NCBI GenBank assembly: GCA_929200535.1 | Contig: CAKMZV010000001.1 | Coordinates: 45,470-109,469 of the forward strand | Direction of reading: 5' to 3' | DNA from: an uncultured Gammaproteobacteria bacterium | GTDB lineage: Bacteria; Pseudomonadota; Gammaproteobacteria; CAKMZV01 | Length of the DNA: 64,000 nucleotides | In this document: positions 14,246 to 57,776 of the stretch, one piece after another | Layout: each line of letters begins with the position of its first letter | How positions within the stretch are numbered: position 1 is the stretch's first letter | Notes under the pieces: model-generated | The model's database searches: none | Told to the model about the DNA's origin: nothing | The model's input: the letters and a program-made list of their open reading frames with translations, nothing else | Translations under genes and position numbers: made by a program

Positions 14246-14406
14246 TGAGACCTTTGCACAAAAGATATGACAAGTAAAAAAGTAAAAAATCGCCCTGATT
14301 TTCGTTGTGAAACTTGCGAAGACGGACGTATTAGCTGCGTTCCACGCCTCAATCAGAACGATTTTTTATCTTTTTTCTTTTACCATACTTTTATGCAAAG
14401 GTCTCA
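14246..14406 (+). mobile_element. MITE-like palindromic repeat, copy 1 (orientation B)
   Basis: tgagacctttgcacaaaagatatgacaagtaaaaaa...ttttatgcaaaggtctca; about 161 bp, terminal inverted repeats, internal arms mutually complementary (aaaaaatcg(c/t)cctgatt...gtgaaa); 3' terminus overlaps the stop codon of the downstream minus-strand gene. Confidence 0.85.
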
Positions 14407-15723
14407 AGTTGTTTTACCAGGAATCCAAGTAGTTCCAGCGAGAGGAATTTGTGCCATAGCTGCCGCTTCAACAGTTAGGGCTGCCATATCTTCGGGTTCA
14501 AGATTATGTACATCACTCTTACCACAAGCACGTGCAAGTGTTTGCACTTCTAAGGTGAGACAACGCAGATAGTTCGCCACACGACGACCACCAAGCACAG
14601 GATCCAAACGTTTTGCCAAGTCTGGATTTTGAGTTGAGATACCTGCAGGACAATTACCTGCTTGGTATTCAAAATAATAACCTGATTTTGAGCCGATTTT
14701 TTCATATTCGCTATCAAGTTCTGGACTATTATCTCCCAAGGCAATAAGGGCAGCTGTACCTACAGAGACAGCGTCGGCACCCATCGCTAACGCTTTAGCA
14801 ACATCGGCTCCATTGCGAATACCACCAGAAACAATTAATTGCACTTTGCGGTGCATATCCATATCTTTTAAAGCCTGTACTGCTTGGCGCACTGCTGGTA
14901 AAGTCGGAATGCCAACATGCTCAATAAACACATCTTGAGTAGCGGCGGTTCCGCCTTGCATACCATCAACCACAACCACATCCGCACCAGCTTTCACTGC
15001 CAAGCTGGTATCAAAATAAGTACGTGCAGCACCTACTTTAATATAAATGGGTTTTTCCCAATTAGTGATTTCACGCAGTTCAGTAATTTTAATCTCTAAA
15101 TCATCTGGACCAGTCCAATCTGGATGACGACAAGCACTACGCTGATCAATATTTTGTGGCAAATCTCTCATACGAGCAACCCGCTCATTGATTTTTTGTC
15201 CCAGTAGCATTCCGCCACCACCCGGTTTGGCTCCTTGACCAACCACGACTTCTATTGCATCTGCTTTACGTAAATCATCTGGATTCATTCCATATCGTGA
15301 TGGCAGGTATTGATAGACCAATAAATTGGAATGTCCACGCTCTTCTTGAGTCATTCCACCATCACCAGTTGTGGTACTCGTACCTACTTCACTGGCACCA
15401 CGCCCTAAAGATTCCTTGGCTTGTGCTGAAAGTGAGCCAAAACTCATACCAGCAACAGTAATTGGGATTTTAAGCTCAATTGGTTTTTTGGCAAAACGTG
15501 TTCCTAACGTTACCGCTGTATTGCAAGCCTCACGATATCCTTCTAAAGGATAACGAGACATACTCGCCCCAAGAAATACTAAATCATCAAATGATGGCAC
15601 AAATCGTTTGGCACCACCACCTCGGATACTATAAATGCCTTCTTTAGCAGCACGTTGAATTTCTCGGATAGCATCCTTGCTAAAAGTTTTAGATTCTAAT
15701 AACCATGACTCATTAACACTCAT
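14404..15723 (-). CDS. Glutamate synthase-family FMN-binding domain protein (GltB domain-2 homologue; MgsC-like subunit of split glutamate/N-methylglutamate synthase)
   Basis: 439 aa; FMN/Fe-S glutamate-synthase central domain motifs (GAKPGGGG, VDGMQGGTAATQ, SGGIRNGADVAKALAMGAD). Stop codon TGA lies in terminus of MITE copy 1. Confidence 0.8.
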   Translation of the reverse strand: MSVNESWLLESKTFSKDAIREIQRAAKEGIYSIRGGGAKRFVPSFDDLVFLGASMSRYPLEGYREACNTAVTLGTRFAKKPIELKIPITVAGMSFGSLSAQAKESLGRGASEVGTSTTTGDGGMTQEERGHSNLLVYQYLPSRYGMNPDDLRKADAIEVVVGQGAKPGGGGMLLGQKINERVARMRDLPQNIDQRSACRHPDWTGPDDLEIKITELREITNWEKPIYIKVGAARTYFDTSLAVKAGADVVVVDGMQGGTAATQDVFIEHVGIPTLPAVRQAVQALKDMDMHRKVQLIVSGGIRNGADVAKALAMGADAVSVGTAALIALGDNSPELDSEYEKIGSKSGYYFEYQAGNCPAGISTQNPDLAKRLDPVLGGRRVANYLRCLTLEVQTLARACGKSDVHNLEPEDMAALTVEAAAMAQIPLAGTTWIPGKTT

Positions 15724-15742
15724 TCCAAATCCTCTTTATTAG

Positions 15743-16414
15743 TTAATATGCGTTATCAACGCTAAAATTATATAACTTTCTTGCTGAACCATAACGTTTA
15801 AATTCATCCACTGATATATCAGTAATGTCCGCTTTTTTTAATAACTCTGCCAATTCTTTACGATGCTCATCTTGCATTTCTTTTTCAATACAATCAGCCC
15901 CTAAGCTTTGTGCTTTGCCGCGTAAGTAAATACGTGCCTCATAAATAGAATCACCTAAGGCATTACCCGCATCTCCACAGATAACAAAGCGACCTTTTTG
16001 TGCCATAAAAGCCGACATATGCCCAACACTACCTCTAACAACAATATCTACTCCTTTCATAGAAATACCACAACGTGCCGACGCATCCCCATCAATAATA
16101 ATGGTTCCGCCATGCGCTGTTGCTCCGCAATATTGGGAAACACCGCCCTTAACGTGTACTTTGCCAGACATCATATTCTCAGCAAGCCCAGAGCCGGCAT
16201 TACCTTCAACTGTAATATCCGCTTTTTGATTCATCCCAGCACAGTAATAACCAACGTGTCCATTGATAGTCACACTCTGCTCTTTATTAAGACCAACAGC
16301 AATATTATGTTTGCCATTAGAATTTTCGACAACATACTGTGCGCCATTCTGAGCATTTTGAAGTTCTTGATTGAGTTCTCTTAAACTCACATTATTTAAA
16401 TCCAAATTCTTCAT
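15743..16414 (-). CDS. GXGXG-domain protein (glutamate synthase alpha-subunit C-terminal domain homologue; MgsB-like)
   Basis: 223 aa with repeated G-x-G-x-G beta-helix motifs (GNAGSG, GGVSQYCGATAHGG, GDAGNALG). Confidence 0.8.
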   Translation of the reverse strand: MKNLDLNNVSLRELNQELQNAQNGAQYVVENSNGKHNIAVGLNKEQSVTINGHVGYYCAGMNQKADITVEGNAGSGLAENMMSGKVHVKGGVSQYCGATAHGGTIIIDGDASARCGISMKGVDIVVRGSVGHMSAFMAQKGRFVICGDAGNALGDSIYEARIYLRGKAQSLGADCIEKEMQDEHRKELAELLKKADITDISVDEFKRYGSARKLYNFSVDNAY

Positions 16415-16465
16415 ATAGTAATTTCCTTAATTATTTCTATAAGTTACTTCTGGAAATAGCTATTA

Positions 16466-17380
16466 TTAAGCCGCTTTATGCCAAGAATATATTTTCCCCG
16501 GCTCTGGCTCCCAAATGGAAGCATTTTCAACACCCGGTAACATCGCTATCGCACGAAACTCTGAAGCCATAGCCACCCACTGATCTGTCTCAGCAATCAC
16601 CGCTGGCTTGCAGCCGATATTATCACGCATTACCGCAAAACCATCCTTAGTACCAATAGCAAAGGTATAAAAACCATCAAGATCATCTAATGCTTTAGTT
16701 AAGGCGGTATTTAAATCATCGCCTTGTTTTAAACGCCAGTTAAAATAGGCGGCAGCCACTTCACTGTCATTATCGGTGCTAATTACAATCCCTTCTTTGC
16801 GTAATTTTTCACGCCATCTATTGTGATTAGAAAGCGAACCATTGTGCACTAAACAAATATCATCCCCCGTTGAAAAAGGATGTGAGTGACCAGTCGTCAC
16901 GGCACTTTCTGTCGCCATACGAGTGTGCCCTAAAGCATGGCTACCAGTAAAACTTTGCAAATTAAAGGAAGCGATAACATCTTTAGGTAAGCCTTTTTCT
17001 TTGTATATCTCAATGACCCTTCCGCTACCATTCACATTAATATGAGGGAAATTTTCATTTAGCCACTCATTAAGTGTATTTGTATCTGTTTCCACACTAA
17101 TCAATGCATGAGAGCCTTTTTCCTCAAACTTCGTATCATTACCAAACTGCTTCTTTAGTGCTTGCCTCACTTCATCCCAATTTAACTCTTCACCGCTATC
17201 TACTAACGTGTTTAATAGCGTACATTTAATCTGCTTTCCGATTGTAGGTTGATCATAAATGGCAAATCCCACACTATCAGGTCCTCTTTCAGTCATTTCG
17301 ATAAGCATATCCGACAAATAACTACCTAAGTGCCCTTCTAATTTTTTTTCTTTTAAAAATAATCCGACAATTCCACACAT
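16466..17380 (-). CDS. Class II (Ntn) glutamine amidotransferase domain protein (GltB domain-1 homologue; MgsA-like)
   Basis: 304 aa starting MCGIVGLF (catalytic Cys2 after Met), typical GATase-2. Confidence 0.8.
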   Translation of the reverse strand: MCGIVGLFLKEKKLEGHLGSYLSDMLIEMTERGPDSVGFAIYDQPTIGKQIKCTLLNTLVDSGEELNWDEVRQALKKQFGNDTKFEEKGSHALISVETDTNTLNEWLNENFPHINVNGSGRVIEIYKEKGLPKDVIASFNLQSFTGSHALGHTRMATESAVTTGHSHPFSTGDDICLVHNGSLSNHNRWREKLRKEGIVISTDNDSEVAAAYFNWRLKQGDDLNTALTKALDDLDGFYTFAIGTKDGFAVMRDNIGCKPAVIAETDQWVAMASEFRAIAMLPGVENASIWEPEPGKIYSWHKAA

Positions 17381-17462
17381 AATATTTTTATATTGTTGTT
17401 AGTAATTTACGCAACATCCAACCTATTCCAAAAAAAATACTCACGCTTACTACCATACAGAT

Positions 17463-17623
17463 TGAGACCTTTGCATAAAAGTATGGTAAAAGAAAAAAGA
17501 TAAAAAATCGTTCTGATTGAGGCGTGAAATGAAGCTAATACGTCCGTCTTCGCAAATTTCACAACGATAATCAGGGCGATTTTTTACTTTTTTACTTGTC
17601 ATATCTTTTGTGCAAAGGTCTCA
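17463..17623 (-). mobile_element. MITE-like palindromic repeat, copy 2 (orientation A)
   Basis: tgagacctttgcataaaagtatggtaaaagaaaaaagataaaaaatcgttctgattgaggcgtgaaatgaagctaatacgtccgtcttcgcaaatttcacaacgataatcagggcgattttttacttttttacttgtcatatcttttgtgcaaaggtctca. Confidence 0.85.
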
Positions 17624-20874: not shown

Positions 20875-21035
20875 TGAGCCCTTTGCACAAAAGTATGGCA
20901 AAAGAAAAAAGATAAAAAATCGTTCTGATTAAGGCGTGAAATGAAGCCAATACGTCCGTCTTCGCAAATTTCACAACGAAAATCAGAGCGATTTTTTGCT
21001 TTTTTACTTGTCATATCTTTTGTGCAAAGGGCTCT
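20875..21035 (-). mobile_element. MITE-like palindromic repeat, copy 3 (orientation A, variant termini tgagccc...gggctc)
   Basis: Same about 160-bp element with G-to-C change in both termini (compensatory, preserves terminal hairpin). Confidence 0.8.
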
Positions 21036-21330
21036 TTGTAAAAAAAAATCCAAAGGAGCTGCAAAAGTCCCATAATCGACCTTGCTTACTACTTTGGATT
21101 ACGTATTACTTAATTATACAATCAGTTATTTATTTGATGATGATGGCAGTGTTGTATTTAATCCATCAATATGTTCGTGTAAATCAGGTTTGATAGGAGC
21201 CCACATAGAATCTAAAACAAATAAATTTATACCCATTAGAGAATTTGGATAAAAAAAATCCAGAGGGTTGGCTAAATTCTTATCGTCGAATCAGCGTTTA
21301 TGCTCTGGATTGTGAATAGTATATAATCTT

Positions 21331-21383
21331 AACAAAAAATCAATAAAAAATCAATAAAAAATCAATTAAAAATCAATTAAAAA
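21331..21383. repeat. Short tandem repeat (aaaaatcaat[a/t]a) x about 4-5
   Basis: aaaatcaataaaaaatcaataaaaaatcaattaaaaatcaattaaaaag seen directly. Confidence 0.6.
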
Positions 21384-21401
21384 GTGTGGTTAGTAATAAT
21401 T

Positions 21402-21561
21402 TGAGACCTTTGCATAAAAGTATGGTAAAAGAAAAAAGATAAAAAATTGTTCTGATTGAGGCGTGAAATGAAGCGAATACGTCCGTCTTCGCAAGTTTCA
21501 CAACGACAATCAGAGCAATTTTTTACTTTTTTACTTGTCATATCTTTTGTGCAAAGGTCTC
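21402..21561 (-). mobile_element. MITE-like palindromic repeat, copy 4 (orientation A)
   Basis: tgagacctttgcataaaag...tgtgcaaaggtctc; ends 3 nt before the sufS/csdA-like stop codon. Confidence 0.85.
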
Positions 21562-21564
21562 CAT

Positions 21565-22800
21565 TTATCCGTATTTTTGCTGAATACGCTGAAGGGATTG
21601 AATAAATGTTTCAACCTCATCAAAGGTATTAAAAAAGCAAAGTGAGGCACGCACTGTTGCTGGTAACCCCATTTTTTTGAGAATAGGCATTGTGCAATGA
21701 TGACCTGAGCGTACCGCAATACCATCAAGGTTTAACAAGGTTGCTACATCACTCGGGTGCAAAAAATTACTGGCAAAAACAAAAGAAAGAACGGATGATT
21801 TATGCTCTGCTTGTCCTACAATTTTTATATCAGGAATTTTTACTATCTCCTCGGTCGCAAACTGCAAAAGCTGATGTTCATAATCGCTACTTGCCTCAAG
21901 GTCTAACTTATTCACCCAATCAATGGCACTGCCTAATCCAATTGCTTGAGCTATTGCTGGTGTTCCTGCCTCTAAGCGATTAGGTAATTCATTCGGTGCA
22001 AAACCATCGAAGCCGACCTCAAGAATCATATCACCACCGCCCTGCCATAAGCTAAATTTTTCTAACAATGCTTTCCTTGCCCATAAAATCCCAATCCCTG
22101 TAGGGGCAAACATTTTATGCCCGGAAAAAACCAAGAAATCGCAATCTATTGCCTGCACATCAATGCGTTGATGTGCCGGAACTTGACACGCATCAATTAA
22201 TGTTAATACTTCTTTTTTACGGCACTGACTAATAATTTCTGCAACGGGGTTGCACGTACCCAGTGAATTAGAAATCCAATTTATTGCCAATAATTTAACT
22301 TTACCATCTGCCAATAAAGACGGCAGTTTAGTTATCTCAACCTCGCCCTTCTCATTCACTGGCAACCAGCGAATTTCTAAGCCCATACGCTGTGATAATA
22401 TCTGCCAAGGAACGATATTCGCATGATGTTCCAATTCACTAATAATCACTGCATCACCCGCCTTAAAATACTGTGCAACATAACATTGTGCAACCATATT
22501 AATTGCCTCAGTTGCCCCACGAGTATAAATCACCTCTGTCACAGCAGGTGCATTAATGAATGTAGCTACTTTGTGGCGAGCCGCCTCATATTTGCCTGTA
22601 GCTCGCTCGGATAATTCATGAATCCCACGATGCACATTAGCATTATCTTGGCAATAATAATCACTAATCGCATCAATCACTTGTTGAGGCTTTTGTGAAG
22701 TTGCCGCATTATCAAAATAAATAAGAGGCTTATTATGGACCTCTTGCTGCAAAATAGGAAATTGCTGACGTAACTCTTTTTGGTTAAATAATTTTCTCAT
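21565..22800 (-). CDS. Cysteine desulfurase (SufS/CsdA-type class V aminotransferase)
   Basis: 411 aa; PLP-lysine context FSGHKMFAPTGIGIL, C-terminal catalytic Cys loop (HHCTMP). Confidence 0.8.
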   Translation of the reverse strand: MRKLFNQKELRQQFPILQQEVHNKPLIYFDNAATSQKPQQVIDAISDYYCQDNANVHRGIHELSERATGKYEAARHKVATFINAPAVTEVIYTRGATEAINMVAQCYVAQYFKAGDAVIISELEHHANIVPWQILSQRMGLEIRWLPVNEKGEVEITKLPSLLADGKVKLLAINWISNSLGTCNPVAEIISQCRKKEVLTLIDACQVPAHQRIDVQAIDCDFLVFSGHKMFAPTGIGILWARKALLEKFSLWQGGGDMILEVGFDGFAPNELPNRLEAGTPAIAQAIGLGSAIDWVNKLDLEASSDYEHQLLQFATEEIVKIPDIKIVGQAEHKSSVLSFVFASNFLHPSDVATLLNLDGIAVRSGHHCTMPILKKMGLPATVRASLCFFNTFDEVETFIQSLQRIQQKYG

Positions 22801-22904
22801 AACCTTTTAAATTATAGGAGACCTTTGTTAATGGTTAATTGTTAATGATGGTTCCCTGTTATTCTGAGGCTTGCCCTCAGAATCTCTTGCACGGAGCATT
22901 ACTC

Positions 22905-22945
22905 ATTCCCACGCAGGAGCGTGGGAATGAGTAAGTATTTATTGG
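22905..22945. repeat. REP-like hairpin (ctcattcccacgcaggagcgtgggaatgagtaag)
   Basis: Perfect inverted repeat cattcccacgc/gcgtgggaatg around aggag; related copy at 47288-47325. Confidence 0.5.
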
Positions 22946-23125
22946 TTAGAGTTACTAAGAGTTACTAAGAGAAACGGATTATTTAAATCAATCGGAATTT
23001 AAAAGTCTTAATACCGATGCTATTGAAATCATCAAGCTGATAACAAGTATCATAAAATCTGCAAAAGCCAACATTAACCACTAACCATTGTTGTTTAGGT
23101 TGTTGGTATAAGGGTGATAAGAGGG

Positions 23126-24247
23126 TTACTCTTTAACCCTAGACCATACGTCGTTGTGGTAACCATTTTCCAGCCCAGTATTTATTGTCTGTCCACCAAT
23201 CACCCATACTTTTTCATCAAATACCACCGATGTATGCTCATGTCGAGCCACGAATTTTTCCGTATTTATCTCATAAGTCCAAGTGATACCATCGTAAGAG
23301 CTCCATACTTCGTTTTTGTAGTCACCATCGGTGGTGCCACCAATGACCCACATTTTCTCACCACTACCATCATCAAAAACCACCGATGTATGAGCGCTTC
23401 GAACACTGAATACTGCTGAATCCGTAGCGGTAGTCCAAGTAACACCATTGGTAGATTTCCATACGTCGTTCAAACGTGAAGAACCATTATTGCCACCAAT
23501 CACCCACATTTTATCATCAAAAACCACCGATGTATGACTGTGTCGAGCCGAGAATTTTGCCGAACTATCTTTCGTCTCCTCAATCCAAGTGGCACCATTA
23601 GTAGAGCTCCATACTTCGTTACCACCACGGGTGCCACCAATGACCCACATTTTCTCACCCTCATTATCATCAGCAACATCAAAAGCCACCGCTGTATGAT
23701 AACTGCGAGCCGAGAATGCTGCTGCATCCGTAGCGGTAGTCCAAGTGACACCATCGGTAGAGCTCCATACATCGTTAAATCTACTACTACCGAAGTCACC
23801 ACCAATGACCCACATTCTATTATCAAAAACCACCGATGCATGTCTAGCTCGAGGCGAGAATCCCTTTGTATCAGGAGCAGCCAAATCATTAGACTTAACC
23901 TCAGTCCAAGTGGCACCATTGGTAGAGCTCCATACATCGTTTGCAATAATAATTTTTGAGCCTCCTGAGCCACCAATGATCCACATTTTCTTACCATCCT
24001 TATCACCAGCAACCTCAAAAGCCACCGATGCATGAGCAAATCGACCCGGGAATCCATCTGAAGTATGAGACTTAACCTCAGTCCAAGTATAGGTGGCAGG
24101 ATCAGGCTTATCAACAGGGCAAAAATTTGCTGCAAGAATAATCGGTGCGTATAGGGTAAGGACAAAAATTTTGAGAGATAAGAATTGTTTGATAATTTTA
24201 GAGTAGTTCATATTGATAGGATAGGTTTTTTTTATTACAATTAGCAT
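23126..24247 (-). CDS. Secreted Kelch-type beta-propeller repeat protein
   Basis: 373 aa with N-terminal signal/TM and about 6 tandem about 50-aa blades (DVWSSTDGVTWT...ARxxHTSVVFDxKMWVIGG); nucleotide-level internal repeats generate spurious antisense ORFs. Confidence 0.7.
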   Translation of the reverse strand: MLIVIKKTYPINMNYSKIIKQFLSLKIFVLTLYAPIILAANFCPVDKPDPATYTWTEVKSHTSDGFPGRFAHASVAFEVAGDKDGKKMWIIGGSGGSKIIIANDVWSSTNGATWTEVKSNDLAAPDTKGFSPRARHASVVFDNRMWVIGGDFGSSRFNDVWSSTDGVTWTTATDAAAFSARSYHTAVAFDVADDNEGEKMWVIGGTRGGNEVWSSTNGATWIEETKDSSAKFSARHSHTSVVFDDKMWVIGGNNGSSRLNDVWKSTNGVTWTTATDSAVFSVRSAHTSVVFDDGSGEKMWVIGGTTDGDYKNEVWSSYDGITWTYEINTEKFVARHEHTSVVFDEKVWVIGGQTINTGLENGYHNDVWSRVKE

Positions 24248-24504
24248 TTTTTAATAGAGATAATAATTGTAAAACAAAGTGTAAAAAAATACAATAATTT
24301 AGTGGTTAAAATTATACTGATTTGCTTTGAAACTGTGTTTGTATTAAGGTTTGATGCAGCAGTTAGGAGGTTTAATTTGTGCTTATTCCGATGCAGGAGG
24401 GTGGAAAAGAGTAAGTGTTTTGCTATGGGATGTTGGGGTGCTGAGTCCATATTTGTCATCCTTGTAGAAGTTCAGGATTCCAGCATCTATTGTATGGGGC
24501 TAAA

Positions 24505-25437
24505 CTAACTGCCTACTTTTTTTAATTGGGAAATTACCCTAATATGCTCAGGGCCAATCTCACAACAACCCCCAAGAATTGTGGCTCCATTGTGCATAAA
24601 TTTTTCTACGTATTGATAAAAAATCTCTGTTTTTTTTAATTCTTCGTTAATACCTAAAATCAAACTGGGATTACCACCCTCTCCCCATTTTTTTGCCGAT
24701 GAAACCACATAATTTTCAGGAATTTTATCAAAGGCATTTAGCTTGAAGCCATAAGGAATATTCAGATTATTAAACTCGTTTTGAGCCATTTCATACGCAT
24801 TGGGGGATGCGCAGGCAACAATTAAACCTAACCAATTATTCTGTTGATCTCTTGCGGCAATATCAGTGATACTTTCTTCTGAGGGGAGTTTTCCATTTTC
24901 TTTTAGGTGCACACCAATCAAAGCCGGTAAATTAAAGGGCGCGATAGATTCAAGAGCAATATCACATTCTAAGCCACTTCCCATCACATCAAGAAAAAAG
25001 AAGTCAATACCATTTTTTATATATTTTGCTTGGCTTGAGAAACGTTCTTTGATTTCATCAAGGTCTTCCCCAAGATCTGCACTATAGGTTTGTTTTTGAT
25101 TAGGAAGACTGCCCGCAATAAGCACGTCTTTTTTCGCAATATCTCGTGCTCTTTGAGCTAACTCTACGGCAGTCTTATTAATTTTCTCAAATACTTCAAG
25201 ACAATTATTTTGCTCTAACCTGCCTTTTCTTGCTGTAAAAGTAGAGGTCGTAATTACTTCCGCACCTGCATTGATAAAGTCGATATGAGTATCAATTACC
25301 ATTTGATGATATTCCTCATACATCAAGGCATAAGCAGACCACAAAGTGCCGGTCGGTTTTAATCCCTTGCTAAGAAGTTCTTGCCCCATACCACCATCAA
25401 GAATTCTTAATGTTTGAAAAAAGGTTTTGTCTATCAT
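24505..25437 (-). CDS. Homocysteine S-methyltransferase (MmuM/Hcy-binding domain family)
   Basis: 310 aa; N-terminal ILDGGMGQEL and C-terminal GGCCEIGPEHI zinc-binding motif. Confidence 0.75.
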   Translation of the reverse strand: MIDKTFFQTLRILDGGMGQELLSKGLKPTGTLWSAYALMYEEYHQMVIDTHIDFINAGAEVITTSTFTARKGRLEQNNCLEVFEKINKTAVELAQRARDIAKKDVLIAGSLPNQKQTYSADLGEDLDEIKERFSSQAKYIKNGIDFFFLDVMGSGLECDIALESIAPFNLPALIGVHLKENGKLPSEESITDIAARDQQNNWLGLIVACASPNAYEMAQNEFNNLNIPYGFKLNAFDKIPENYVVSSAKKWGEGGNPSLILGINEELKKTEIFYQYVEKFMHNGATILGGCCEIGPEHIRVISQLKKVGS

Positions 25438-25485
25438 TGTGTTAAAAAAATTTTGAAATTATCTAAAAAGAAGGCAGAGTGATGA

Positions 25486-25926
25486 CTATTCTTCTATTTT
25501 TACTAATGGTTTAAAAATGCAGATGGAAATAAGTTGCTTTTGACGTTGAGAAAAGGAGCAGGATTGGACGTTCAGAGTGAGGTTGTTTTGGGTAGCAATT
25601 TTATTTATTTGCTCTAAGGAGGATAGCCAAGAAAATTCAAATTGATGTGTGCTACGAATCTCTAAGTTTTTATTGTTTAGAGCAAATGTTGCTTGTGGAA
25701 TGAGTAGTGAAACTTGGTCAATAAAGGCGACTGTTTTTTGTATGGAGAATTTCCACGTAGGAGTAGGAGTTTGAGGTCGAGCCTGTTTGAGGGTTGTATG
25801 TGTTTTTGTGAAGGTTGGGGGGGCGTATTTGGGGGGTGATAAAGTGAAGTATATGTTGTAAATAATGATGGAGAAAATCATTGCATTAAGCAAGCGAAGT
25901 ATGTTTTGTAAGGATAGTAGTCGCAT
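25486..25926 (-). CDS. Hypothetical bitopic membrane protein, possible pilus/T2SS assembly component (GspM/PilO-like?)
   Basis: 146 aa, single N-terminal TM, last gene of GspE-GspF operon; no recognisable motif. Confidence 0.35.
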   Translation of the reverse strand: MRLLSLQNILRLLNAMIFSIIIYNIYFTLSPPKYAPPTFTKTHTTLKQARPQTPTPTWKFSIQKTVAFIDQVSLLIPQATFALNNKNLEIRSTHQFEFSWLSSLEQINKIATQNNLTLNVQSCSFSQRQKQLISICIFKPLVKIEE

Positions 25927-25933
25927 AAAAAAA

Positions 25934-26935
25934 TTAAGGGTTTATTTGTAGTTTGATTGTGAATTTACGCTGTTTTGCCAAGTTGCCTTGCAGGGGGTTT
26001 TGCTGGGTTTTAAGGTCTTGGATAATGGGATTTCGATGTAGAATATCAAGCATTTCTTCCCATTCTTGTTGGAGGGCTAAGGTGGATTTTTTTTGTTTCC
26101 AATAGCCAGAAATTGTGATGGTTGGCGGAGTGAAAAGAATATCTTGAATAATGATGTTTTTGATAGAGTCAAGGGAGTTTGATAGGGCTTTTAAGTGCAT
26201 ATCTAAGCGGTTTGAAGTCCATTTTGGTGCCGTTTTTACTTTTGTAGGTTTGTTAGGAGTTTGAGGTATAAAAATAGGTTTGGAGCTTTCTATTGAGTTG
26301 TGCCGAGTGAAAAATGAAACGGGCATTGTAAACAAAAGAATCGCTAAGATAATTACTTCTAATGTGAGTAGTTGTTGAACGCTTTGTCGCCAGCGTCCTA
26401 TGGTAAAAAGTTTGTGCTTTTGTTTGCTTATTTTTTCTTCTAAAAGTGATATGGTTTTTTCTAATGATAGCTCTTTTTGATGAGTTTTTTGAGTAGTGAG
26501 GTGGGTCAATGAATCAAGTGCTGTGTGTGATTTTGTAATGCTTTTGAAGCGATTAACAGTTATATGGCGAGTAAGCGTTGTGGTGAGTTTAATTAGTGTG
26601 TTGTTACGTAAATTAAGTAGTTGTTCTACTGCAAAAATATTTTTTCTAAAAGAGGCATCGGGGGATAAGGATGATATTTTTTGCAGGCTATCATCACTTA
26701 TATCTAAGGTGCTCCCAAGACGATATTTTTGTGGCAGAATTTGATAGCCGTCGTTGATTAAAATCCAATAAAAATTTTTATGATTTTTTTGTATATATTC
26801 TTTAAGCTGAGATAGCGATAATTTTTTACTACGGTTTAGATTGTCGAGGGAAATTATCCACGCATTTTCACAACCCATTAAAATAGCTTGATGCTCGTTT
26901 GTTGCTGGTGAAAATTTTTTAAACAATCGATCCAT
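25934..26935 (-). CDS. Hypothetical protein with central TM segment, possible PilM/PilN- or GspL-like assembly protein
   Basis: ORF-track 25934-26986; likely start at internal MDRLFKK (26935) to limit overlap with upstream gspF-like gene; cytoplasmic N-half, TM (VIILAILLFTMPV), periplasmic C-half. Confidence 0.35.
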   Translation of the reverse strand: MDRLFKKFSPATNEHQAILMGCENAWIISLDNLNRSKKLSLSQLKEYIQKNHKNFYWILINDGYQILPQKYRLGSTLDISDDSLQKISSLSPDASFRKNIFAVEQLLNLRNNTLIKLTTTLTRHITVNRFKSITKSHTALDSLTHLTTQKTHQKELSLEKTISLLEEKISKQKHKLFTIGRWRQSVQQLLTLEVIILAILLFTMPVSFFTRHNSIESSKPIFIPQTPNKPTKVKTAPKWTSNRLDMHLKALSNSLDSIKNIIIQDILFTPPTITISGYWKQKKSTLALQQEWEEMLDILHRNPIIQDLKTQQNPLQGNLAKQRKFTIKLQINP

Positions 26936-27959
26936 CGTAGAGCGGGAGGATAATAGCGTGAATAAACAGGGCAATAATAATGCCAATCAATAAAGTTAGC
27001 AGTGGTTCAATAAAAGGTTGGATTTTTTGCAGGTGTTTTTTTCCAAGTTCTTCAAAGTGCGTGGCAAGAGTTTCAAAGACTTCGCCAAGCTGTTTTTGAC
27101 CACGAATTCCTTCTACGGTCTGCCCGAGTGTTTGTGGCAAATGAGGGTGTTGAGTGAGAGCATAAGATAGAGTTTTGCCTTGAAGAATAGCAGTAACTGT
27201 TTTTTGTGAGTAGTATTTTAGAATGCTAAGTTTAAAAAGGTTTGAGGATTGGGTGAGCGATACTGGAATGTTTAAGTGAATTTTCATACACGCAGACATA
27301 TGATGACAAAAATGTGCGATATCTTGGTAGAGCAAAATTTTTCCAAGTACACCAAATTTAAGTATGCATTTACTGAAAAAATAAGATTTTCTAAAATAAA
27401 AAATGAGTGAAGTAAAGAATAATATTGTGAGTAGTAGCAAGGTCCATTGACCAATAGATAAGGAGATAAGAAAAAGAAAAAACTGCGTAGTAATCGCTAA
27501 GTCTTGATTGGTGGTGGAAATTATTTTAAGTTGGGGAATCAGTAAATAAGAAGCAAAAATAACACTTGATAAACAAATAAGTAGCAAAAAAATAGGATAG
27601 GAAATTGCTTGGCGAAAGAGTTGAGATTTTTTTTCTATACGCTCAAGAAGTTTGTCGCTAAGAATGATGGCATTGAGTAAGTCGTGCGATTTTTCGCCAG
27701 CATCAATAAGGTTTATGATTTCATCAAATAGGAGCTTTTCAGAGTATAGAGCTTGGGAGAAACTGTTGCCGTTTTTTACTTTGAGTAAAATTGGCTGGAG
27801 GCGGATTTTTATGACAGATTTTTCTTGGTCGATTAAATCTTGCAGGGCGGTGATTAAGGTGCTGCCACCTTGTAACCTTAGGCGAATTTCATAGAGCAGC
27901 AGTTGTTGATGTTTGTTTGCAAGCGGTTTGCGCTTTTGAGTGAGTTTTATGGCTTGCAT
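26919..27959 (-). CDS. Type II secretion / type IV pilus platform protein (GspF/PilC family)
   Basis: 346 aa, two T2SS-F repeats with 3 TM segments. Confidence 0.7.
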   Translation of the reverse strand: MQAIKLTQKRKPLANKHQQLLLYEIRLRLQGGSTLITALQDLIDQEKSVIKIRLQPILLKVKNGNSFSQALYSEKLLFDEIINLIDAGEKSHDLLNAIILSDKLLERIEKKSQLFRQAISYPIFLLLICLSSVIFASYLLIPQLKIISTTNQDLAITTQFFLFLISLSIGQWTLLLLTILFFTSLIFYFRKSYFFSKCILKFGVLGKILLYQDIAHFCHHMSACMKIHLNIPVSLTQSSNLFKLSILKYYSQKTVTAILQGKTLSYALTQHPHLPQTLGQTVEGIRGQKQLGEVFETLATHFEELGKKHLQKIQPFIEPLLTLLIGIIIALFIHAIILPLYDGSIV

Positions 27960-27968
27960 ATTGCTTAC

Positions 27969-29579
27969 TTAGTTTAGACTCGCTCCCATTACTCGTTCAA
28001 CTTCTTTGTGATCGGTGAGTTTGTTATTGACCGCATCGTTAGCGATTTTTTGCAGGCTTTTGTATTTGTGACTGCTAAAAACTTTGGATAGTTTTTGTTG
28101 GTCAAAAATAAGATGTTCCATAATCGCAAAACGACCATAATATCCACTTTGATTACATTTCTGACAACCTGTTCCGTAACAATCTGTACAAAGTTTTCTC
28201 AATAACCTTTGTGCCATTATGGCGAGAGTTTGGGAGTAAAAAGCAGCACTCGATTCTAAAAGATTTTTCATTCGGTTTGGAATATCTTTGATATAAGCCG
28301 CATGGATGGTCGCAAGAACAAGGTGTCCCGTTAAGGCTGCCTTAATTGCCAATTCAGCACTTTCACTATCACGAATTTCACCAATGAGGAGAATATCTGG
28401 ATCTTGTCGTAGTAGTGAGCGAATGCCTTGTGCAAAATCTAAGCCTAATTCTGGACGCACGTTGGTTTGTCGAATATCGGGCACAATATGTTCAACTGGG
28501 TCTTCTAATGTAGCAACATTTAATTTATTTAGTTGAAGCGTTTTTAATAGAGCATAGAGCGTGGTTGTTTTACCACTACCAGTGGGACCGCTAATTAAAA
28601 TAAGCCCGGAAGGTTGTTTGATAAGTGCTTTGAGTTTGGTGTTTAAATTTTGATCAAATCCTAAATTAGGTAGGGCAACTATGGATTTATGGCTATTGAG
28701 ACGCAATACAATAGATTCACCATGAATGGAGGGTAAAGAAGATAAACGAAAATCATAGTCGTTTCCTCTGAGACGAATAAAAAATGAGCCATCTTGGGGG
28801 AGGTGATTTTCTGTAATGTCAATATTGGAAAGAACTTTTAAGCGAATTTTAACGGAATTCCAAATATCTAAGTTTAGTTTTCTTTTTTCAATCAAAACAC
28901 CATCCACACGTAAACGCTGTTGGGTGAAGTAGGGGTTGCTATCAAAATGAATGTCCGATGCTCGTTGTTGCAGTGCTTCTAATAAAAATCCTTCGACCAA
29001 TTTGATAATAATATGGTCCGGAGAGACAATTTGATTTGTTTGAGTGAGTGGTGAGGAGCAAAGTTGTGCAATAAGTGGTTCAACTTCATCGGCGTGTGTT
29101 AATTGATAGTCAATTGCTTCACTAACTCGCATATTTTTGCAAAAATAGGGGTGAATAACCCAAACTCCCTTAAATAGTTCCTCCGCAATTTTTACTTTAT
29201 CAATTAGATAAGGTTGTTCCATTGCAACACAAAGCATATTGCCATCTATTTTGAAGGGTAGCATTGCATTTTCTATCATTTGCTCAACAGAGCTTAGTTT
29301 GAGTATGCTGGAATCGATGTTAATGTTTATTAAATCGATTGAGGGAATGCCAAAATGAGTTAGCAGGAAATTTTCAACTTTATCTAAGTCAATTAGTTGG
29401 GCTTGATGTAAAAAACGAATGGGGTCAGTATTATTTTGTTGTATTTCACGCATTGCTAAATTTTTAGCATCATCATTTAAAATATTATTTTCATACATTT
29501 TGTCAAGTAAACTAATAGGCACTTGCTGTGCCGAATTTGTTTCTTTAGAAGAAGAAAAAAATTTTATCATTAGAGTCAA
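27969..29579 (-). CDS. Type II secretion / type IV pilus assembly ATPase (GspE/PilB family) with N-terminal T2SSE_N domain
   Basis: 536 aa; Walker A ISGPTGSGKTTTLYA, Asp box, His box, C-terminal tetracysteine (CTDCYGTGCQKCNQSG). Confidence 0.85.
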   Translation of the reverse strand: MTLMIKFFSSSKETNSAQQVPISLLDKMYENNILNDDAKNLAMREIQQNNTDPIRFLHQAQLIDLDKVENFLLTHFGIPSIDLININIDSSILKLSSVEQMIENAMLPFKIDGNMLCVAMEQPYLIDKVKIAEELFKGVWVIHPYFCKNMRVSEAIDYQLTHADEVEPLIAQLCSSPLTQTNQIVSPDHIIIKLVEGFLLEALQQRASDIHFDSNPYFTQQRLRVDGVLIEKRKLNLDIWNSVKIRLKVLSNIDITENHLPQDGSFFIRLRGNDYDFRLSSLPSIHGESIVLRLNSHKSIVALPNLGFDQNLNTKLKALIKQPSGLILISGPTGSGKTTTLYALLKTLQLNKLNVATLEDPVEHIVPDIRQTNVRPELGLDFAQGIRSLLRQDPDILLIGEIRDSESAELAIKAALTGHLVLATIHAAYIKDIPNRMKNLLESSAAFYSQTLAIMAQRLLRKLCTDCYGTGCQKCNQSGYYGRFAIMEHLIFDQQKLSKVFSSHKYKSLQKIANDAVNNKLTDHKEVERVMGASLN

Positions 29580-29857
29580 AAAAGGTGCATAAAAAATAGG
29601 GTTTAAAAGCCTTGAAATGTTATAATTATAAAAGTCTGATTATATATCAGAAAGGAAGCCATTAGGGTATGGACAAATAACAAAAGACATAAAAAAATCA
29701 TTGTCTTTTTTAAGTTGACGCCAGATTTTCCATAAACAAGCGTCTTTATATTTGTCTGTCTTAGAAGTAAGAATAAAAAAACGTTTACTACCAAAGCCAC
29801 TTAAAAGGCGTTTTTGGTAGTCAATACATCATTAAAAAAATACTAACAACTTTAAAT

Positions 29858-40035: not shown

Positions 40036-40263
40036 TGAGACCTTTGCATAAAAGTATGGCACACAAAACGTTTTTACTCTTGGCGAGTTTACGAGCCTTA
40101 GAGTAACAGTGTTTGAACTGCTTGCAGGTAAAAGAAAAAAGATAAAAAATCGTTCTGATTGAGACGTGAAATGAAGCTAATACGTCCGTCTTCGCAAATT
40201 TCACAACGATAATCAGAGCGGTTTTTTGCTTTTTTACTTGTCATATCTTTTGTGCAAAGGTCT
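40036..40263 (-). mobile_element. MITE-like palindromic repeat, copy 5 (orientation A) carrying a 68-bp internal insertion
   Basis: tgagacctttgcataaaagtatggcacacaaaacgtttttactcttggcgagtttacgagccttagagtaacagtgtttgaactgcttgcaggtaaaagaaaaaagataaaaaatcg...tgtgcaaaggtctta; insert identical to that in truncated copy at 56641. Confidence 0.8.
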
Positions 40264-40393
40264 TATTATACCAATTATTTTCTACGTGGACTGATGACAA
40301 GGGTAGAACTAAAGAGTACAATATCAAGGAAGTTGTTCAAATGAACATAAGTTCAGCGTATTATTTTAAAATTGATGATTAAAAAGAAAAAAT

Positions 40394-40416
40394 CAGACCT
40401 TTACAAAAGGTCTCAA
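40394..40416. repeat. Minimal terminal-repeat-only palindrome (cagacctttacaaaaggtctca), MITE terminus pair without internal sequence
   Basis: Seen directly 5 nt upstream of the retropepsin-like gene ATG. Confidence 0.5.
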
Positions 40417-42408: not shown

Positions 42409-42449
42409 AAATCCTCTTTATCGTTTTACAATATAAAATTTTCAATCTT

Positions 42450-52595: not shown

Positions 52596-52626
52596 TAGCT
52601 TCTTGCTCCTAATTTAATTATTCAAA

Positions 52627-54223
<1,597 letters not shown>

Positions 54224-55135: not shown

Positions 55136-55186
55136 TACATTTCTCCTTTTTAGTAAATTTTTTAGTTTTCTGTTATTCGATGCTTC

Positions 55187-56494
55187 CTATTTAAGTCTCA
55201 ATAATACTTCTCGCAAAATCGTACCAAGCTCATCTATATTTTCTTTTTCAAAGGGCAAAGGTGGTGATAAAGCAATAATGTCGCCCGTTGTGCGAATGAG
55301 CAAACCACTCTCAAAAGCATCAATAAACGCACTAAAGGCTCTTTTAGTTGGCATTCCCTCTATTGGCTCCAATTCAATCGCACCAATAAAACCCAGATTA
55401 CGAATATCAATCACATAAGGCAAGCCCTTGAAGCTATGTAACATCTCTTGCCAATAATGAGTAAACGATGGATCTTTAGAAAATAATTGCTCTGATTCAT
55501 ACACATCAAGACACGCCATTGCAGCTGCACATGCTACTGGGTTACCCGAATATGTATAGCCATGGAAAAACTCAATTAAATGCTCTGCTCCAGACATAAA
55601 AGCATCATAAATAAAATCCTTACAAATAACTGCTCCCATCGGCACAGTAGCATTAGTCAAGCCTTTTGCGGTTGTTACTATATCTGGAATAACTCCAAAA
55701 TAATCAACTGCAAACGGAACCCCAAGACGTCCAAAACCAGTAATCACCTCATCAAAGATAAGTAAAATACCATTTTCATCACAAATCTCACGAATACGCT
55801 CTAAATATCCTTTTGGTGGAATAAGCACTCCTGTAGAACCCGCTACAGGCTCGATAATAAGTGCGGCAATCGTTTCAGCTCCATACAAATTAATGACACG
55901 TAGTAAATCTTCCGCATATTCAGCACCATATTCAGGCATACCACGTGAAAAAGCATTACGAGAAATGTCATGGGTGTGTTTAATATGATCAACGCTTGGT
56001 AGCAAGTCACCAAAACTGTCTCTATTAGGCGGAATACCGCCAACAGAAATTCCACCAAAATTTACGCCGTGATAACCTCTTTCACGACCAATAAGGTGAA
56101 CTCTTTTTTCTTGACCTATTGCTTTTTGATATGAGACTGCTATTTTCAAAGCGGTCTCTACAGATTCTGAACCTGAATTGGTAAAAAATACCTTATTCAT
56201 ATCAGTAGGGAAATAGTTGCTCAATCGACTTGCAAGAGCAAATGCAGCTGGATGTCCCATTTGGAAAGAAGGTGCGTAATCTAAAACAGAAAGTTGTTTG
56301 CTAACTACCTCTTGAATATGAGGATGACAATGACCTGCATTTGAACACCACAACCCCGAAGTACCATCAAGGATAGTTCGACCATCCTCGCTTGTATAAT
56401 ACAAGCCGTTAGCACTAACCAACATCCTAGGCGTTTGCTTAAATTGCCTATTTGCCGTAAATGGCATCCAAAGATTTTCGAGCGTTGACTTCAT
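55187..56494 (-). CDS. Class III aminotransferase (beta-alanine/3-aminoisobutyrate:pyruvate aminotransferase-like)
   Basis: 435 aa; PLP-lysine region IPDIVTTAKGL, class III fold; in beta-alanine-producing cluster. Confidence 0.8.
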   Translation of the reverse strand: MKSTLENLWMPFTANRQFKQTPRMLVSANGLYYTSEDGRTILDGTSGLWCSNAGHCHPHIQEVVSKQLSVLDYAPSFQMGHPAAFALASRLSNYFPTDMNKVFFTNSGSESVETALKIAVSYQKAIGQEKRVHLIGRERGYHGVNFGGISVGGIPPNRDSFGDLLPSVDHIKHTHDISRNAFSRGMPEYGAEYAEDLLRVINLYGAETIAALIIEPVAGSTGVLIPPKGYLERIREICDENGILLIFDEVITGFGRLGVPFAVDYFGVIPDIVTTAKGLTNATVPMGAVICKDFIYDAFMSGAEHLIEFFHGYTYSGNPVACAAAMACLDVYESEQLFSKDPSFTHYWQEMLHSFKGLPYVIDIRNLGFIGAIELEPIEGMPTKRAFSAFIDAFESGLLIRTTGDIIALSPPLPFEKENIDELGTILREVLLRLK

Positions 56495-56566
56495 CGTAAA
56501 TTAAATCTCCTTAAAGAGTTTTTTACTTAAAAATGAGTACAGCATACTAACTTTACATTAAACCAT

Positions 56567-56625
56567 AAAGCTGACCATTTAGTCAATCAAATTGGTCAAA
56601 TAAATTTGACTAATTAGTCAGCTTT
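56567..56625. promoter_or_regulatory. Tandem RutR-box-like TetR operator palindromes upstream of pyrimidine-catabolism operon
   Basis: aaagctgaccatttagtcaatcaaattggtcaaataaatttgactaattagtcagcttt: contains CTGACCATTTAGTCAA (56571-56586) and TTGACTAATTAGTCAG (56606-56621), both close to RutR consensus TTGACCAnnTGGTCAA, embedded in a larger perfect palindrome. Confidence 0.55.
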
Positions 56626-56640
56626 ATAAAAAAAACATTC

Positions 56641-56754
56641 TGAAACCTTTGCATAAAAGTATGGCACAAAAAACGTTTTTACTCTTGGCGAGTTTACGAG
56701 CCTTAGAGTAACAGTGTTTGAACTGCTTGCAGGTAAAAGAAAAACGAAAAGCGA
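56641..56754 (-). mobile_element. MITE-like repeat, truncated copy 7 (5' half only, with the same 68-bp insertion as copy 5)
   Basis: tgaaacctttgcataaaagtatggcacaaaaaacgtttttactcttggcgagtttacgagccttagagtaacagtgtttgaactgcttgcaggtaaaagaaaaa then diverges. Confidence 0.7.
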
Positions 56755-56896
56755 AAAAGGATTAACTCTCTAAGACTGTTGCAGAATGGAAAAGGGCAAA
56801 AGAAATCACCCTATCCTTTGGGCACCTCCTCCGAGGGAGGGGAATGAGTAGAAACGTTTTGCCAAAACGTCTCTATGCTATATCTGACTACCTCTA

Positions 56897-57559
56897 CTAA
56901 TCTTCTCTTAATTCGTGAAAGACCGCACCAAGTATCAGTTTGACAACTTCGTTACGTTTATTTTTATATTCTTGTTTAGATAAACGCTTATTTTTATTAA
57001 GAACAGTGATTTGATATTCAAAATCCGCATAATGCTGGGTTGTTGCCCAAATCATATAAAGCAAAGCATTGGCATCAATATCTTTGATAATACCCTCTTG
57101 CTTCCATTTATTGATCACTCCAACACGTAAGTCAACCCATTCATTAAAGCTACTGGGGATTTTTATAAAGGTTTTTTTAGATACTCTGCCACTCACAAGA
57201 ATAAAATGTGCCCAGATTTTTGACGCATGAGGATATTCACGAGAAAAATCCATTTTTTCTTCTATGTAGCTCTTGAGTATCATATAAGGGTCTCCAACAA
57301 GGTTAAACATTTTTCCTTCCTGTAGCCAATCATCAAGAATGGTTTCAATAACTATTTGATATAACTCTGCCTTCGTTTGCACATAGTAAAGAACCGTTGA
57401 TTTAGGTAATTTTGCTTCTTCGGCAATCATACTCATCGTCGCCCCTTTATATCCATTTAAAGCAAAAATTTTCTCAGCAGCTTTATATATTTTTTTGCTT
57501 CGTATTTTACGTTTTTTAAATCGTTCAATCGTCATTTTTACGCTAAGAAATTCAGTCAA
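56897..57559 (-). CDS. TetR-family transcriptional regulator (RutR-like)
   Basis: 220 aa; N-terminal TetR HTH (AAEKIFALNGYKGATMSMIAEEAKLPKSTVLYY), flanks pyrimidine catabolic genes. Confidence 0.75.
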   Translation of the reverse strand: MTEFLSVKMTIERFKKRKIRSKKIYKAAEKIFALNGYKGATMSMIAEEAKLPKSTVLYYVQTKAELYQIVIETILDDWLQEGKMFNLVGDPYMILKSYIEEKMDFSREYPHASKIWAHFILVSGRVSKKTFIKIPSSFNEWVDLRVGVINKWKQEGIIKDIDANALLYMIWATTQHYADFEYQITVLNKNKRLSKQEYKNKRNEVVKLILGAVFHELRED

Positions 57560-57606
57560 TAGTAATTGCAGTCAAAGGAGTGCTGATTTTGTAACAAACT
57601 ACACTT

Positions 57607-57776
57607 TGAGACCTTTGCATAAAAGTATGGCAAAAGAAAAAAGATAAAAAATCGTTCTGATTGAGGCGTGAAATGAAGCTAATACATCCGTCTTCGCAAG
57701 TTTTATAACGAAAATTAGGGCAATTTTTTGCTTTTTTATTTGTCATATCTTTTGTGCAAAGGTCTCTTACAGCGAA
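57607..57776 (-). mobile_element. MITE-like palindromic repeat, copy 8 (orientation A)
   Basis: tgagacctttgcataaaagtatggcaaaagaaaaaagataaaaaatcgttctgattgaggcgtgaaatgaagctaatacatccgtcttcgcaagttttataacgaaaattagggcaattttttgcttttttatttgtcatatcttttgtgcaaaggtctc. Confidence 0.85.

Follow-up and report, generated by a model that had tools for sequence, protein, structure and literature searches.

A previously undescribed family of hairpin-forming miniature elements with IS5-family termini in an uncultured relative of Ca. Thioglobus

What are the short palindromic sequences that recur along this DNA, and how did they become dispersed? The window analyzed here, i.e., the whole stretch of 64,000 nucleotides from an uncultured gammaproteobacterium, had been reported in a preliminary description to carry a family of palindromic, MITE-like repeats. 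The family is real, since its copies align with 92 to 100% identity, a terminus pattern of 18 nt, with up to 3 mismatches allowed, matches the window 15 times against 0.23 matches expected, and a repeat search recovers the family. Seven full copies are present in the window, along with a left-end fragment and a 21-bp palindrome that is probably a collapsed copy; eight copies lie within 44 kb. Full copies measure 159 bp, or 228 bp in a long variant; the copies contain no ORF of note and have no coding capacity. Although the inverted termini had been recognized correctly, the exact limits had not: the flanking T or A taken into the element is part of a 5-bp target site duplication (TSD) and therefore lies outside, and the true boundaries are GAGACC...GGTCTC. 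The loci themselves were right, and their coordinates required small shifts, 52627 and 57776 being about 10 nt off. Each of the seven full copies has 18-nt termini with 0 or 1 mismatch at its two ends. The terminal inverted repeats extend over approximately 27 bp (left, GAGACCTTTGCATAAAAGTATGG; right, GAGACCTTTGCACAAAAGATATGAC), are conserved across taxa with a fixed left/right asymmetry, and enclose an interior that is also palindromic.

Copy 1 (14247..14405, minus strand; 159 bp) is flanked by AACTT at 14242-14246 and 14406-14410, and gene 14404..15723(-) takes the GA of its TGA stop codon from the terminus of the copy. Copy 2 (17464..17622, plus strand; 159 bp) is located between a GATase gene and a dsbC-like gene, with AGATT on both sides. 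Copy 3 (20876..21034, plus strand; 159 bp) carries the variant termini GAGCCC...GGGCTC and is without a clean TSD (AATTT / TTTGT). Copy 4 (21403..21561, plus strand; 159 bp), bordered by AATTT and CATTT (4/5), is separated by 3 nt from the stop codon of an aminotransferase gene, 21565..22800(-). Copy 5 (40037..40264, plus strand), flanked by ATTAT on both sides, is the 228-bp long variant, its additional length being a 69-nt hairpin module (40060-40128). The 21-bp palindrome CAGACCTTTACAAAAGGTCTC (40394..40414, strand undefined) consists of two terminus tips between AAAAT direct repeats and is present in every strain seen. Copy 6 (52638..52796, plus strand; 159 bp), with GGTTT on both sides, sits in the last codons of an amidohydrolase gene, 52766..54205(-), whose C-terminus ...RPLHKRYDK* is now encoded by the sequence of the copy. 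Copy 7 (56642..56755, end approximate, plus strand) was rightly counted as the one incomplete copy beside seven full ones, but it does not derive from the standard element by truncation; rather, it represents the left end of the long variant, composed of a GAAACC terminus, the 69-nt module, and an A-rich segment, with 96% identity over 114 nt to the copy 5 type and no convincing right terminus. Copy 8 (57608..57766, plus strand; 159 bp) is the most diverged and has no TSD (ACTTT / TTACA), which was possibly lost by recombination between copies.

Once gene positions were checked, all copies proved to be intergenic or to overlap gene 3′ ends, as first described, and copies occur at, or directly after, stop codons. 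Seven of the eight share one orientation, again in agreement with the preliminary description, and the 6:1 ratio among the seven full copies is statistically not significant. Promoter scans detected none in the copies or at their junctions, and a simple scan found no canonical terminator in the copies. Separately, a spacing of 42 to 48 bp from copies to downstream start codons is recurrent, yet the scans found no promoter at the junctions.

The flanks of the copies bear on how they arrived. The 5-bp TSDs are perfect in four of the seven full copies and match at 4/5 positions in one more, the probability of a 5/5 match by chance being 0.0015 (0.15%) per site. At the copy 5 site, the window strain reads ATTAT-element-ATTAT, and four other strains (L030, L032, L033, and L035) present an empty site with a single ATTAT. 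This was the only one of the eight insertions to vary between strains, and its polymorphism could in principle reflect precise excision instead of insertion. A 32-bp strain indel at ~42.4 kb is unrelated to the element, and two MAGs seemed to carry indels close to the chorismate-binding gene that are in fact 100-N scaffold gaps. Empty sites were also sought by means of BipA orthologues, and no conserved synteny was found in the nearest relatives (76 to 83% identity). The repeat is not an assembly artefact, a concern raised at the outset, since at least five independent assemblies contain it; contigs of independent assemblies end inside copies, which fits the expectation for a dispersed repeat.

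A parent of IS630, ISL3, or IS200 type had been guessed initially, but the guess was wrong: the ends are of the IS5 family, IS1106/ISNme1 type. Their terminal 12 bp are identical (12/12) to the ISNme1 terminus and to the IS ends found in L090 and L138. Published IS5-family termini include GAGACCTTTGCAAAA for ISNme1 and GAGACCATTGCA for ISPg1, BrickBuilt copies occur with GAGACCTTTGCA and GAGCCCTTTGCA termini, and the Neisseria MITE ATR, a 181-bp intergenic element (PMC5383966), has been proposed to derive from ISNme1 (PMC4596501). The Porphyromonas gingivalis ISPg1 and BrickBuilt termini are close variants of the ends of the family. Autonomous ISs were recovered in L090 (1,219 bp) and L138 (1,222 bp), both with GAGACCTTTGCAAAA ends, and encode transposases of 335 and 337 aa, respectively. 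The L090 transposase scores 260.8 bits against the IS5-family DDE model NCBIfam NF033581 (cut-off 140) and matches Pfam DDE_Tnp_1 plus DUF772, and some homologues are annotated at source as transposases of ISNme1 or IS1106. The L138 IS is flanked by the 5-bp duplication GGCCT; two Neisseria IS copies in L090 have none. Duplications of 5 bp also flank two 181-bp elements in L064 with the length and termini of ATR (GGATT and TGGAT), a 142-bp relative element (AGGCT), and a Francisella IS whose transposase falls in the same clade (TTATC). A related terminal motif is found in NF033581-clade members from Marinomonas, Prevotella, Bealeia, and Francisella. In MAGs of Thiotrichaceae and Thiomicrorhabdus, and on two metagenome contigs, the same ~27-bp termini enclose unrelated interiors, and same-terminus elements of other taxa have perfect 5-bp TSDs (TTCTT in L007, ACTAA in L008, TTTAT in L014, and TTAGA in L006). 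A scan for the 21-nt terminus through genome and metagenome collections, covering organisms other than that of the window, returned eight stretches only. Matches in L016 and L017, and one on a viral contig (L018) from a separate 18-nt scan, lie inside coding sequence and were rejected as chance, and BLAST of the element and its terminus against plasmids gave chance matches only. As initially stated, the window holds no transposase; none occurs within 10 kb on either side, and tblastn over ~200 kb of partly overlapping host-strain contigs found none.

We then compared the family with known elements. ATR of N. meningitidis and ISNme1/IS1106 share with it the terminal 12 bp GAGACCTTTGCA and the identical A-run that follows, as well as the 5-bp target duplication seen in the two L064 elements and the L138 IS. 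Like the family, ATR is short (181 bp, against 159 bp here), lacks coding sequence, and is found almost only between genes or at 3′ ends (PMC5383966, PMC4596501). Membership in ATR was nevertheless rejected: similarity to the Neisseria ISs and ATR is confined to the terminal 12 to 16 bp, and the interior is unrelated to that of the L064 elements. Moreover, ATR forms a modest hairpin (z −4.4), whereas the family forms a near-perfect full-length foldback (z −12.8), its conserved terminus is longer than that of ATR, and its host belongs to a lineage distant from Neisseria, the Gammaproteobacteria related to Ca. Thioglobus. In P. gingivalis, BrickBuilt, MITEPgRS (MITE464), and ISPg1 (IS1126) have IS5-type GAGACCTTTGCA termini together with the GAGCCC variant seen in copy 3, and BrickBuilt and MITEPgRS likewise lie between genes and are non-autonomous, with copy numbers in the tens (PMC4596501, PMC2575886). 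They differ in having internal tandem minisatellites, distinct leader and tail segments, irregular flanking duplications, and no full-length hairpin. The duplication made by ISPg1/IS1126, for whose length we found no published value, is presumably 5 bp. Correia, ERIC, RUP, and RPE elements are 100 to 200 bp long, hairpin-forming, intergenic, and high in copy number, with terminal inverted repeats and the ability to affect transcript ends. The family resembles them in this general design but not in its termini or duplication, which are IS5-type ends and 5 bp (Correia duplicates TA); with GAGACC... termini and a 5-bp duplication, the family was rejected as a Correia element (CREE). L090, by comparison, does contain a genuine Correia element. 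Integron attC and CRISPR readings were considered and rejected as well. A search of the window with Rfam at the gathering threshold returned tRNAs only, and a permissive search gave at best 27 bits against a threshold of 211, to generic long-hairpin models. The element type, an IS5-derived MITE, is well known, and the family itself is previously undescribed and not an already named repeat of this organism.

Taken together, the ends, the 5-bp duplications, the empty and filled site, and the relatives, both autonomous and miniature, that share these ends and this duplication length argue that the copies are very probably MITEs derived from, or mobilized by, an IS5-family IS of the IS1106/ISNme1 type, and the original MITE reading thus stands. 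The copies have the terminal inverted repeats, the fixed-length TSD, and the empty-site polymorphism of MITEs, and they are small, dispersed, and without transposase; the terminus match and the duplication length shared with the L138 and Francisella ISs tie them to the IS1106/ISNme1 type. Under this model, a DDE transposase supplied in trans would bind both element ends and insert the element into short, mostly AT-rich targets via a 5-bp staggered cut, whose repair would leave the 5-bp direct repeats. Movement may be cut-and-paste or copy-and-paste, and the foldback architecture may have arisen by inverted duplication of one end. The cognate transposase would be present, or would have been until recently, elsewhere in the genome, and its parent IS would measure ~1.2 kb, carry GAGACCTTTGCAYAAAAG(W)ATG ends, and be flanked by 5-bp direct repeats.

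Other routes of dispersal were weighed against this model. Miniature elements derived from the Tn3 family (TIMEs) also produce 5-bp duplications in AT-rich targets, as observed here. Tn3 termini, however, are 38-bp inverted repeats of the form GGGG...TAAG, whereas the present termini start with GAGACC without that signature and equal IS5-family ends, and autonomous elements with such ends encode ~335-aa DDE_Tnp_1 IS5 transposases rather than Tn3 TnpA; the terminus match effectively refutes a TIME origin, whose probability we regard as negligible. Spread as REP/BIME-like palindromes by a RAYT (IS200/IS605-type) single-strand transposase, or as palindrome-associated elements moved as single-stranded hairpins, would account for palindromic, intergenic copies that often lie downstream of genes and fold better on one strand. 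REP/BIME sequences, though, are short GTAG-type palindromes without target duplication and with an associated RAYT gene. Clean 5-bp duplications and a matching empty site are not products of HUH single-strand transposition, the termini match the DDE IS5 group, and the annotated DNA contains no RAYT or TnpA(Y1) gene, which together make this origin extremely improbable.

A different question is whether the hairpin, rather than mobility, is the functional unit, the copies being host-domesticated structured RNAs or DNA hairpins (bidirectional terminators, mRNA 3′-end stabilizers, or antisense sRNAs) kept by selection on the fold of one strand, with transposition only as the means of dispersal. 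As predicted at the start, the whole element folds into one hairpin, at −64 to −77 kcal/mol (z −12.8) as RNA and −39.5 (z −9.5) as DNA. On the top strand, standard pairs fill 99.8% of pair cells, and changes on both sides occur at three pairs, one of which is the concerted change in the two termini of copy 3 (A to C and T to G) that had been noticed earlier. One-sided changes at Watson-Crick pairs give 9 G.U versus 1 A.C on that strand, the reverse of the direction at unpaired positions (Fisher P 0.002, or ~0.02 if one ambiguous column is polarized the other way). In every copy the top strand folds 8 to 22 kcal/mol better than the bottom strand. Copies that abut or overlap stop codons also leave no space for another terminator, and the inner stem is bordered by A6 and T6 runs. 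Against selection on a functional hairpin, the strand that folds better runs antisense to the neighboring genes in 5/7 copies, no promoter is detectable within the copies or beside them, the simple scan gave no support to terminator function, and no consistent strand asymmetry of folding was found in relatives from other taxa. The substitution analysis comprises about 10 independent events, and quasi-palindrome correction by template switching could give concerted changes without selection. We consider it unlikely that the hairpin is the functional unit. Pairing-preserving substitutions on one strand are nonetheless suggestive, if few, and lend moderate support to the earlier proposal that the structure is selected or copied. 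There is a slim chance that strand-specific purifying selection tolerates G.U and purges A.C, the copies having been co-opted as structured RNAs or single-stranded DNA hairpins, possibly as antisense or terminator modules or as a single-strand intermediate of their own propagation. Under the MITE model, too, the copies may have a secondary effect as bidirectional transcription terminators or 3′-end stabilizers, given their place at or directly after stop codons and the A6 and T6 runs on either side of their inner stem, and the pairing-preserving substitution pattern is compatible with it.

These results add to the known MITEs a family not described before, whose host is an uncultured bacterium related to the SUP05/Ca. 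Thioglobus sulfur oxidizers. The copies break metagenome assemblies and alter gene 3′ ends, one giving part of a stop codon and another replacing a C-terminus, and the strain-variable insertion of copy 5 is usable as a strain marker. Strand-specific selection or a single-strand intermediate, if true, would be unusual among MITEs of IS5 type, and the strand-biased pairing-preserving substitutions offer a small, testable hint of selection on some MITE hairpins. The IS1106/ISNme1-type terminus and 5-bp duplication recur in Neisseriaceae, Francisella, and several sulfur-oxidizer MAGs, and the terminus recurs in Porphyromonas too, with irregular flanking repeats.

The preliminary description of this region proposed a family of palindromic MITE-like elements of about 160 bp, with seven full copies and one truncated copy, and the family is genuine. 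With up to 3 mismatches allowed, an 18-nt terminus pattern matches 15 places in the window, whereas shuffled sequence would give 0.23, and identity to copy 2 is 92 to 100% across copies. A repeat search of the window recovered 6 to 7 copies of a unit of about 160 to 174 nt, plus copy 1 as an inverted relation. With exact boundaries placed at GAGACC...GGTCTC, the full copies lie at 14247-14405 (copy 1, reverse orientation), 17464-17622 (copy 2), 20876-21034 (copy 3, with a GAGCCC terminus variant), 21403-21561 (copy 4), 40037-40264 (copy 5), 52638-52796 (copy 6), and 57608-57766 (copy 8). Copy 5 reaches 228 bp because it contains an extra 69-nt hairpin module at 40060-40128. Copy 7 (56642 to ~56755) has the left terminus and 69-nt module in common with copy 5 (96% identity over 114 nt) and no convincing right terminus; it is thus a fragment of the long variant, from its left end, instead of a truncated standard element. 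The count of seven full copies stands. The reported orientation bias is visible among the full copies (6:1) but not significant (two-sided binomial calculation, P of about 0.125).

Perfect 5-bp direct repeats (AACTT, AGATT, ATTAT, and GGTTT) flank four of the seven full copies once boundaries are corrected, and one further copy has a 4/5 flank match; the chance of a 5/5 match at a random window site is 0.0015. Copies 3 and 8 are without a clean duplication. Copy 5 is insertion-polymorphic among independently assembled strains of the same organism: its site is uninterrupted, with a single ATTAT, in L030, L032, L033, and L035, and reads ATTAT-element-ATTAT in the window strain, with a length difference of exactly 228 + 5 bp. 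The other copies are common to every strain seen. In addition, several contigs of independent metagenome assemblies of this organism (L003, L005, L020, L022, and L023) end inside element copies, which a dispersed repeat would be expected to cause. Together, these contig ends and the copy 5 polymorphism show that the unit is mobile now or was recently, and they rule out an assembly artefact. The family is probably common genome-wide, and it limits assembly contiguity.

Copies 3 and 4 (20876-21561) lie in the same orientation, 368 bp apart, in one intergenic region, and are preceded by an identical 6 bp (TAATTT) at their left ends; this sharing, with the missing right duplication of copy 3, may reflect a past rearrangement between copies. 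The native left flank of copy 6 (52617-52637, minus strand GAAACCTTTGAATAAT) resembles the element terminus GAGACCTTTGCA, which could indicate a target preference for end-like sequence or be a coincidence. Palindromes of 21 to 23 bp built solely of two terminus tips occur in two unrelated genomes, at window 40394-40414 (CAGACCTTTACAAAAGGTCTC) and in a Thiomicrorhabdus MAG (L006, 6476-6498, GAGACCTTTTGTGCAAAGGCCTT), each with a perfect 5-bp direct repeat (AAAAT and TTTAT, respectively). Their appearance is that of full elements that lost the interior by deletion between CTTT/AAAG microrepeats and kept both duplication copies.

Searching the full-text literature with the terminus string led to Klein et al. 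2015 (PMC4596501). GAGACCTTTGCA(AAA) is the terminus of ISNme1, an IS5-family element of Neisseria meningitidis and the proposed parent of the Neisseria MITE ATR; close variants, including the GAGCCC of copy 3, terminate ISPg1, ISPg4, and the Porphyromonas gingivalis MITEs BrickBuilt and MITEPgRS (PMC4596501, Table 2 for ISNme1). Scanning viral and prophage contigs with GAGACCTTTGCAAAA recovered relatives. Neisseria DNA (L090), in which a Correia element and DUS are visible, carries an IS of 1,219 bp that has these ends and contains a 335-aa ORF. Its product scores 260.8 bits against NCBIfam NF033581 (IS5 family transposase, cut-off 140) and matches Pfam DDE_Tnp_1 and DUF772, and some homologues are source-named ISNme1 or IS1106 transposase. 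A second IS (L138; 1,222 bp, 337-aa ORF, 74% identical to the L090 protein) is flanked on both sides by GGCCT. Duplications also flank two 181-bp elements with the same termini and the published ATR length (L064; GGATT and TGGAT), a 142-bp element (L137; AGGCT), and, on a Francisella plasmid, an IS with a transposase of the same clade (TTATC). Related termini occur in clade members from Marinomonas (GAGACCTCAGCATAA), Prevotella (GAGACCTCTGCAAAA), and Ca. Bealeia (AAGACCATTGCATAA). Because terminus and duplication length both match, the window elements fit this IS5 subgroup; the family works in the manner of IS5 MITEs from the IS1106/ISNme1-ISPg1 group and, judged by its ends, is to be placed with them.

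A 122,989-bp metagenome scaffold in ENA matches the window, to which contigs of three MAGs (GCA_929200245.1, GCA_929200605.1, and GCA_929200695.1) are nearly identical. The window's BipA is ~75% identical to Ca. Thioglobus proteins (nearest relatives, 80 to 83%), which makes the host an uncultured relative of SUP05-type sulfur oxidisers within the Gammaproteobacteria. A scan of reference-genome and metagenome collections gave few matches to the 21-nt terminus. Among them were elements in two Thiotrichaceae MAGs (L007, 288 bp, TTCTT; L008, 208 bp, ACTAA), two metagenome contigs (L014, 80 bp, TTTAT; L015, 139 bp, TGAGA/TGGGA), and the Thiomicrorhabdus MAG (L006, 158 bp, TTAGA); all have the same ~27-bp termini, asymmetric between left and right in the same way, and 5-bp duplications that are perfect or nearly so, and their interiors are unrelated. 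From these shared features, a transposase recognising the ~27-bp terminus must circulate in these lineages. As first noted, the window has no transposase; none appeared in Pfam labels of all called genes there and 10 kb to either side, and tblastn with two Neisseria-type transposases found no match in ~200 kb of partly overlapping host-strain contigs.

As proposed from the initial reading, each 159-bp copy forms one long hairpin, with RNA fold energies of -64 to -77 kcal/mol (z -12.8) for the strand written GAGACCTTTGCATAAAAGTATGG... and a DNA fold energy of -39.5 kcal/mol (z -9.5); the complementary strand is 8 to 22 kcal/mol less stable in every copy. In an ungapped alignment of the seven copies, standard pairs occupy 99.8% of pair cells, and three pairs are changed on both sides: 46/115 (copies 4 and 6), 67/93, and 4/156, the last being the pairing-preserving terminus change already noticed in copy 3. 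One-sided changes at Watson-Crick pairs yield, on the favoured strand, G.U nine times and A.C once, whereas transitions at unpaired positions run the opposite way (G->A three times, T->C twice; Fisher P = 0.002, or ~0.02 in our recalculation with the opposite polarity for ambiguous column 24). This pattern, of ~10 events, is consistent with purifying selection acting on how one strand folds when single-stranded; template switching that corrects quasi-palindromes could also produce it. At copies 2, 3, 4, 6, and 8 the favoured strand is antisense to neighbouring genes, and no sigma-70-like promoter was detectable in or at the copies. Full-length foldback recurs in some relatives (L006, L015, and L137); the substitution and strand pattern is not mirrored in those of other taxa.

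All copies are intergenic or overlap a gene 3' end, in agreement with the initial placement. In gene 14404..15723 the GA of the TGA stop comes from copy 1, which, on a reading of its flanks, removes one codon. Copy 6 sits in the final codons of the amidohydrolase gene (52766..54205), and the end of the gene product (...RPLHKRYDK*) is read from the element; 3 nt separate the end of copy 4 from a stop codon. Copies 3, 6, and 8 precede start codons by 42 to 48 bp. Since A6 and T6 runs flank the inner stem, a role as bidirectional terminator is plausible; a simple terminator scan did not call this stem.

Strains also differ elsewhere in the locus. An island at 4039-6938, beside tRNA genes 7356-7439(-) and 7747-7820(+), encodes a DUF87/HerA-like ATPase and a 390-aa protein of unknown function in the window; L020 has an 889-aa AAA_21 protein in their place, and L022 and L023 lack the island. 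Immediately upstream of the window (L029) are genes for type I restriction-modification, AAA_13, and AAA_23 proteins, and the island looks like a defence-island hotspot. Upstream of tolQ, L032 (1-7279, MAG GCA_929200605.1) shows a large strain-specific replacement relative to window ~22100-29600, with DNA methylase, HATPase_c_3, Z1, DUF4420, and AIPR genes in place of T2SS/T4P E and F, S-methyltransferase, and Kelch genes. The Kelch/beta-propeller gene (23126-24247, minus strand) contains internal DNA repeats of ~150-300 bp and has a shorter 357-aa allele in L030; such eukaryote-like repeat proteins are frequent in host-associated bacteria. A 32-bp intergenic indel with no relation to the element lies between the genes for aldehyde dehydrogenase and amidohydrolase (~42409-42449). 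Apparent differences of +286 and -154 bp near a chorismate-binding gene (L025 and L026, ~7800-9200) are 100-N scaffold gaps in MAGs.

Correia, REP/BIME, and Tn3-derived TIME families were rejected for the window element, which has no Rfam match. The closest described relative is Neisseria ATR, a 181-bp MITE with 13-bp perfect inverted ends that is found nearly always in intergenic sequence, with an enrichment between convergent genes (PMC5383966). Similarity to ATR ends after 12 to 16 bp, so the window family is not an ATR member, and ATR folds back weakly (z -4.4) compared with the window element. The kind is already known, and the window family is an additional member, notable for near-perfect foldback, an insertion that differs between strains, and a hint that the structure of one strand is constrained.
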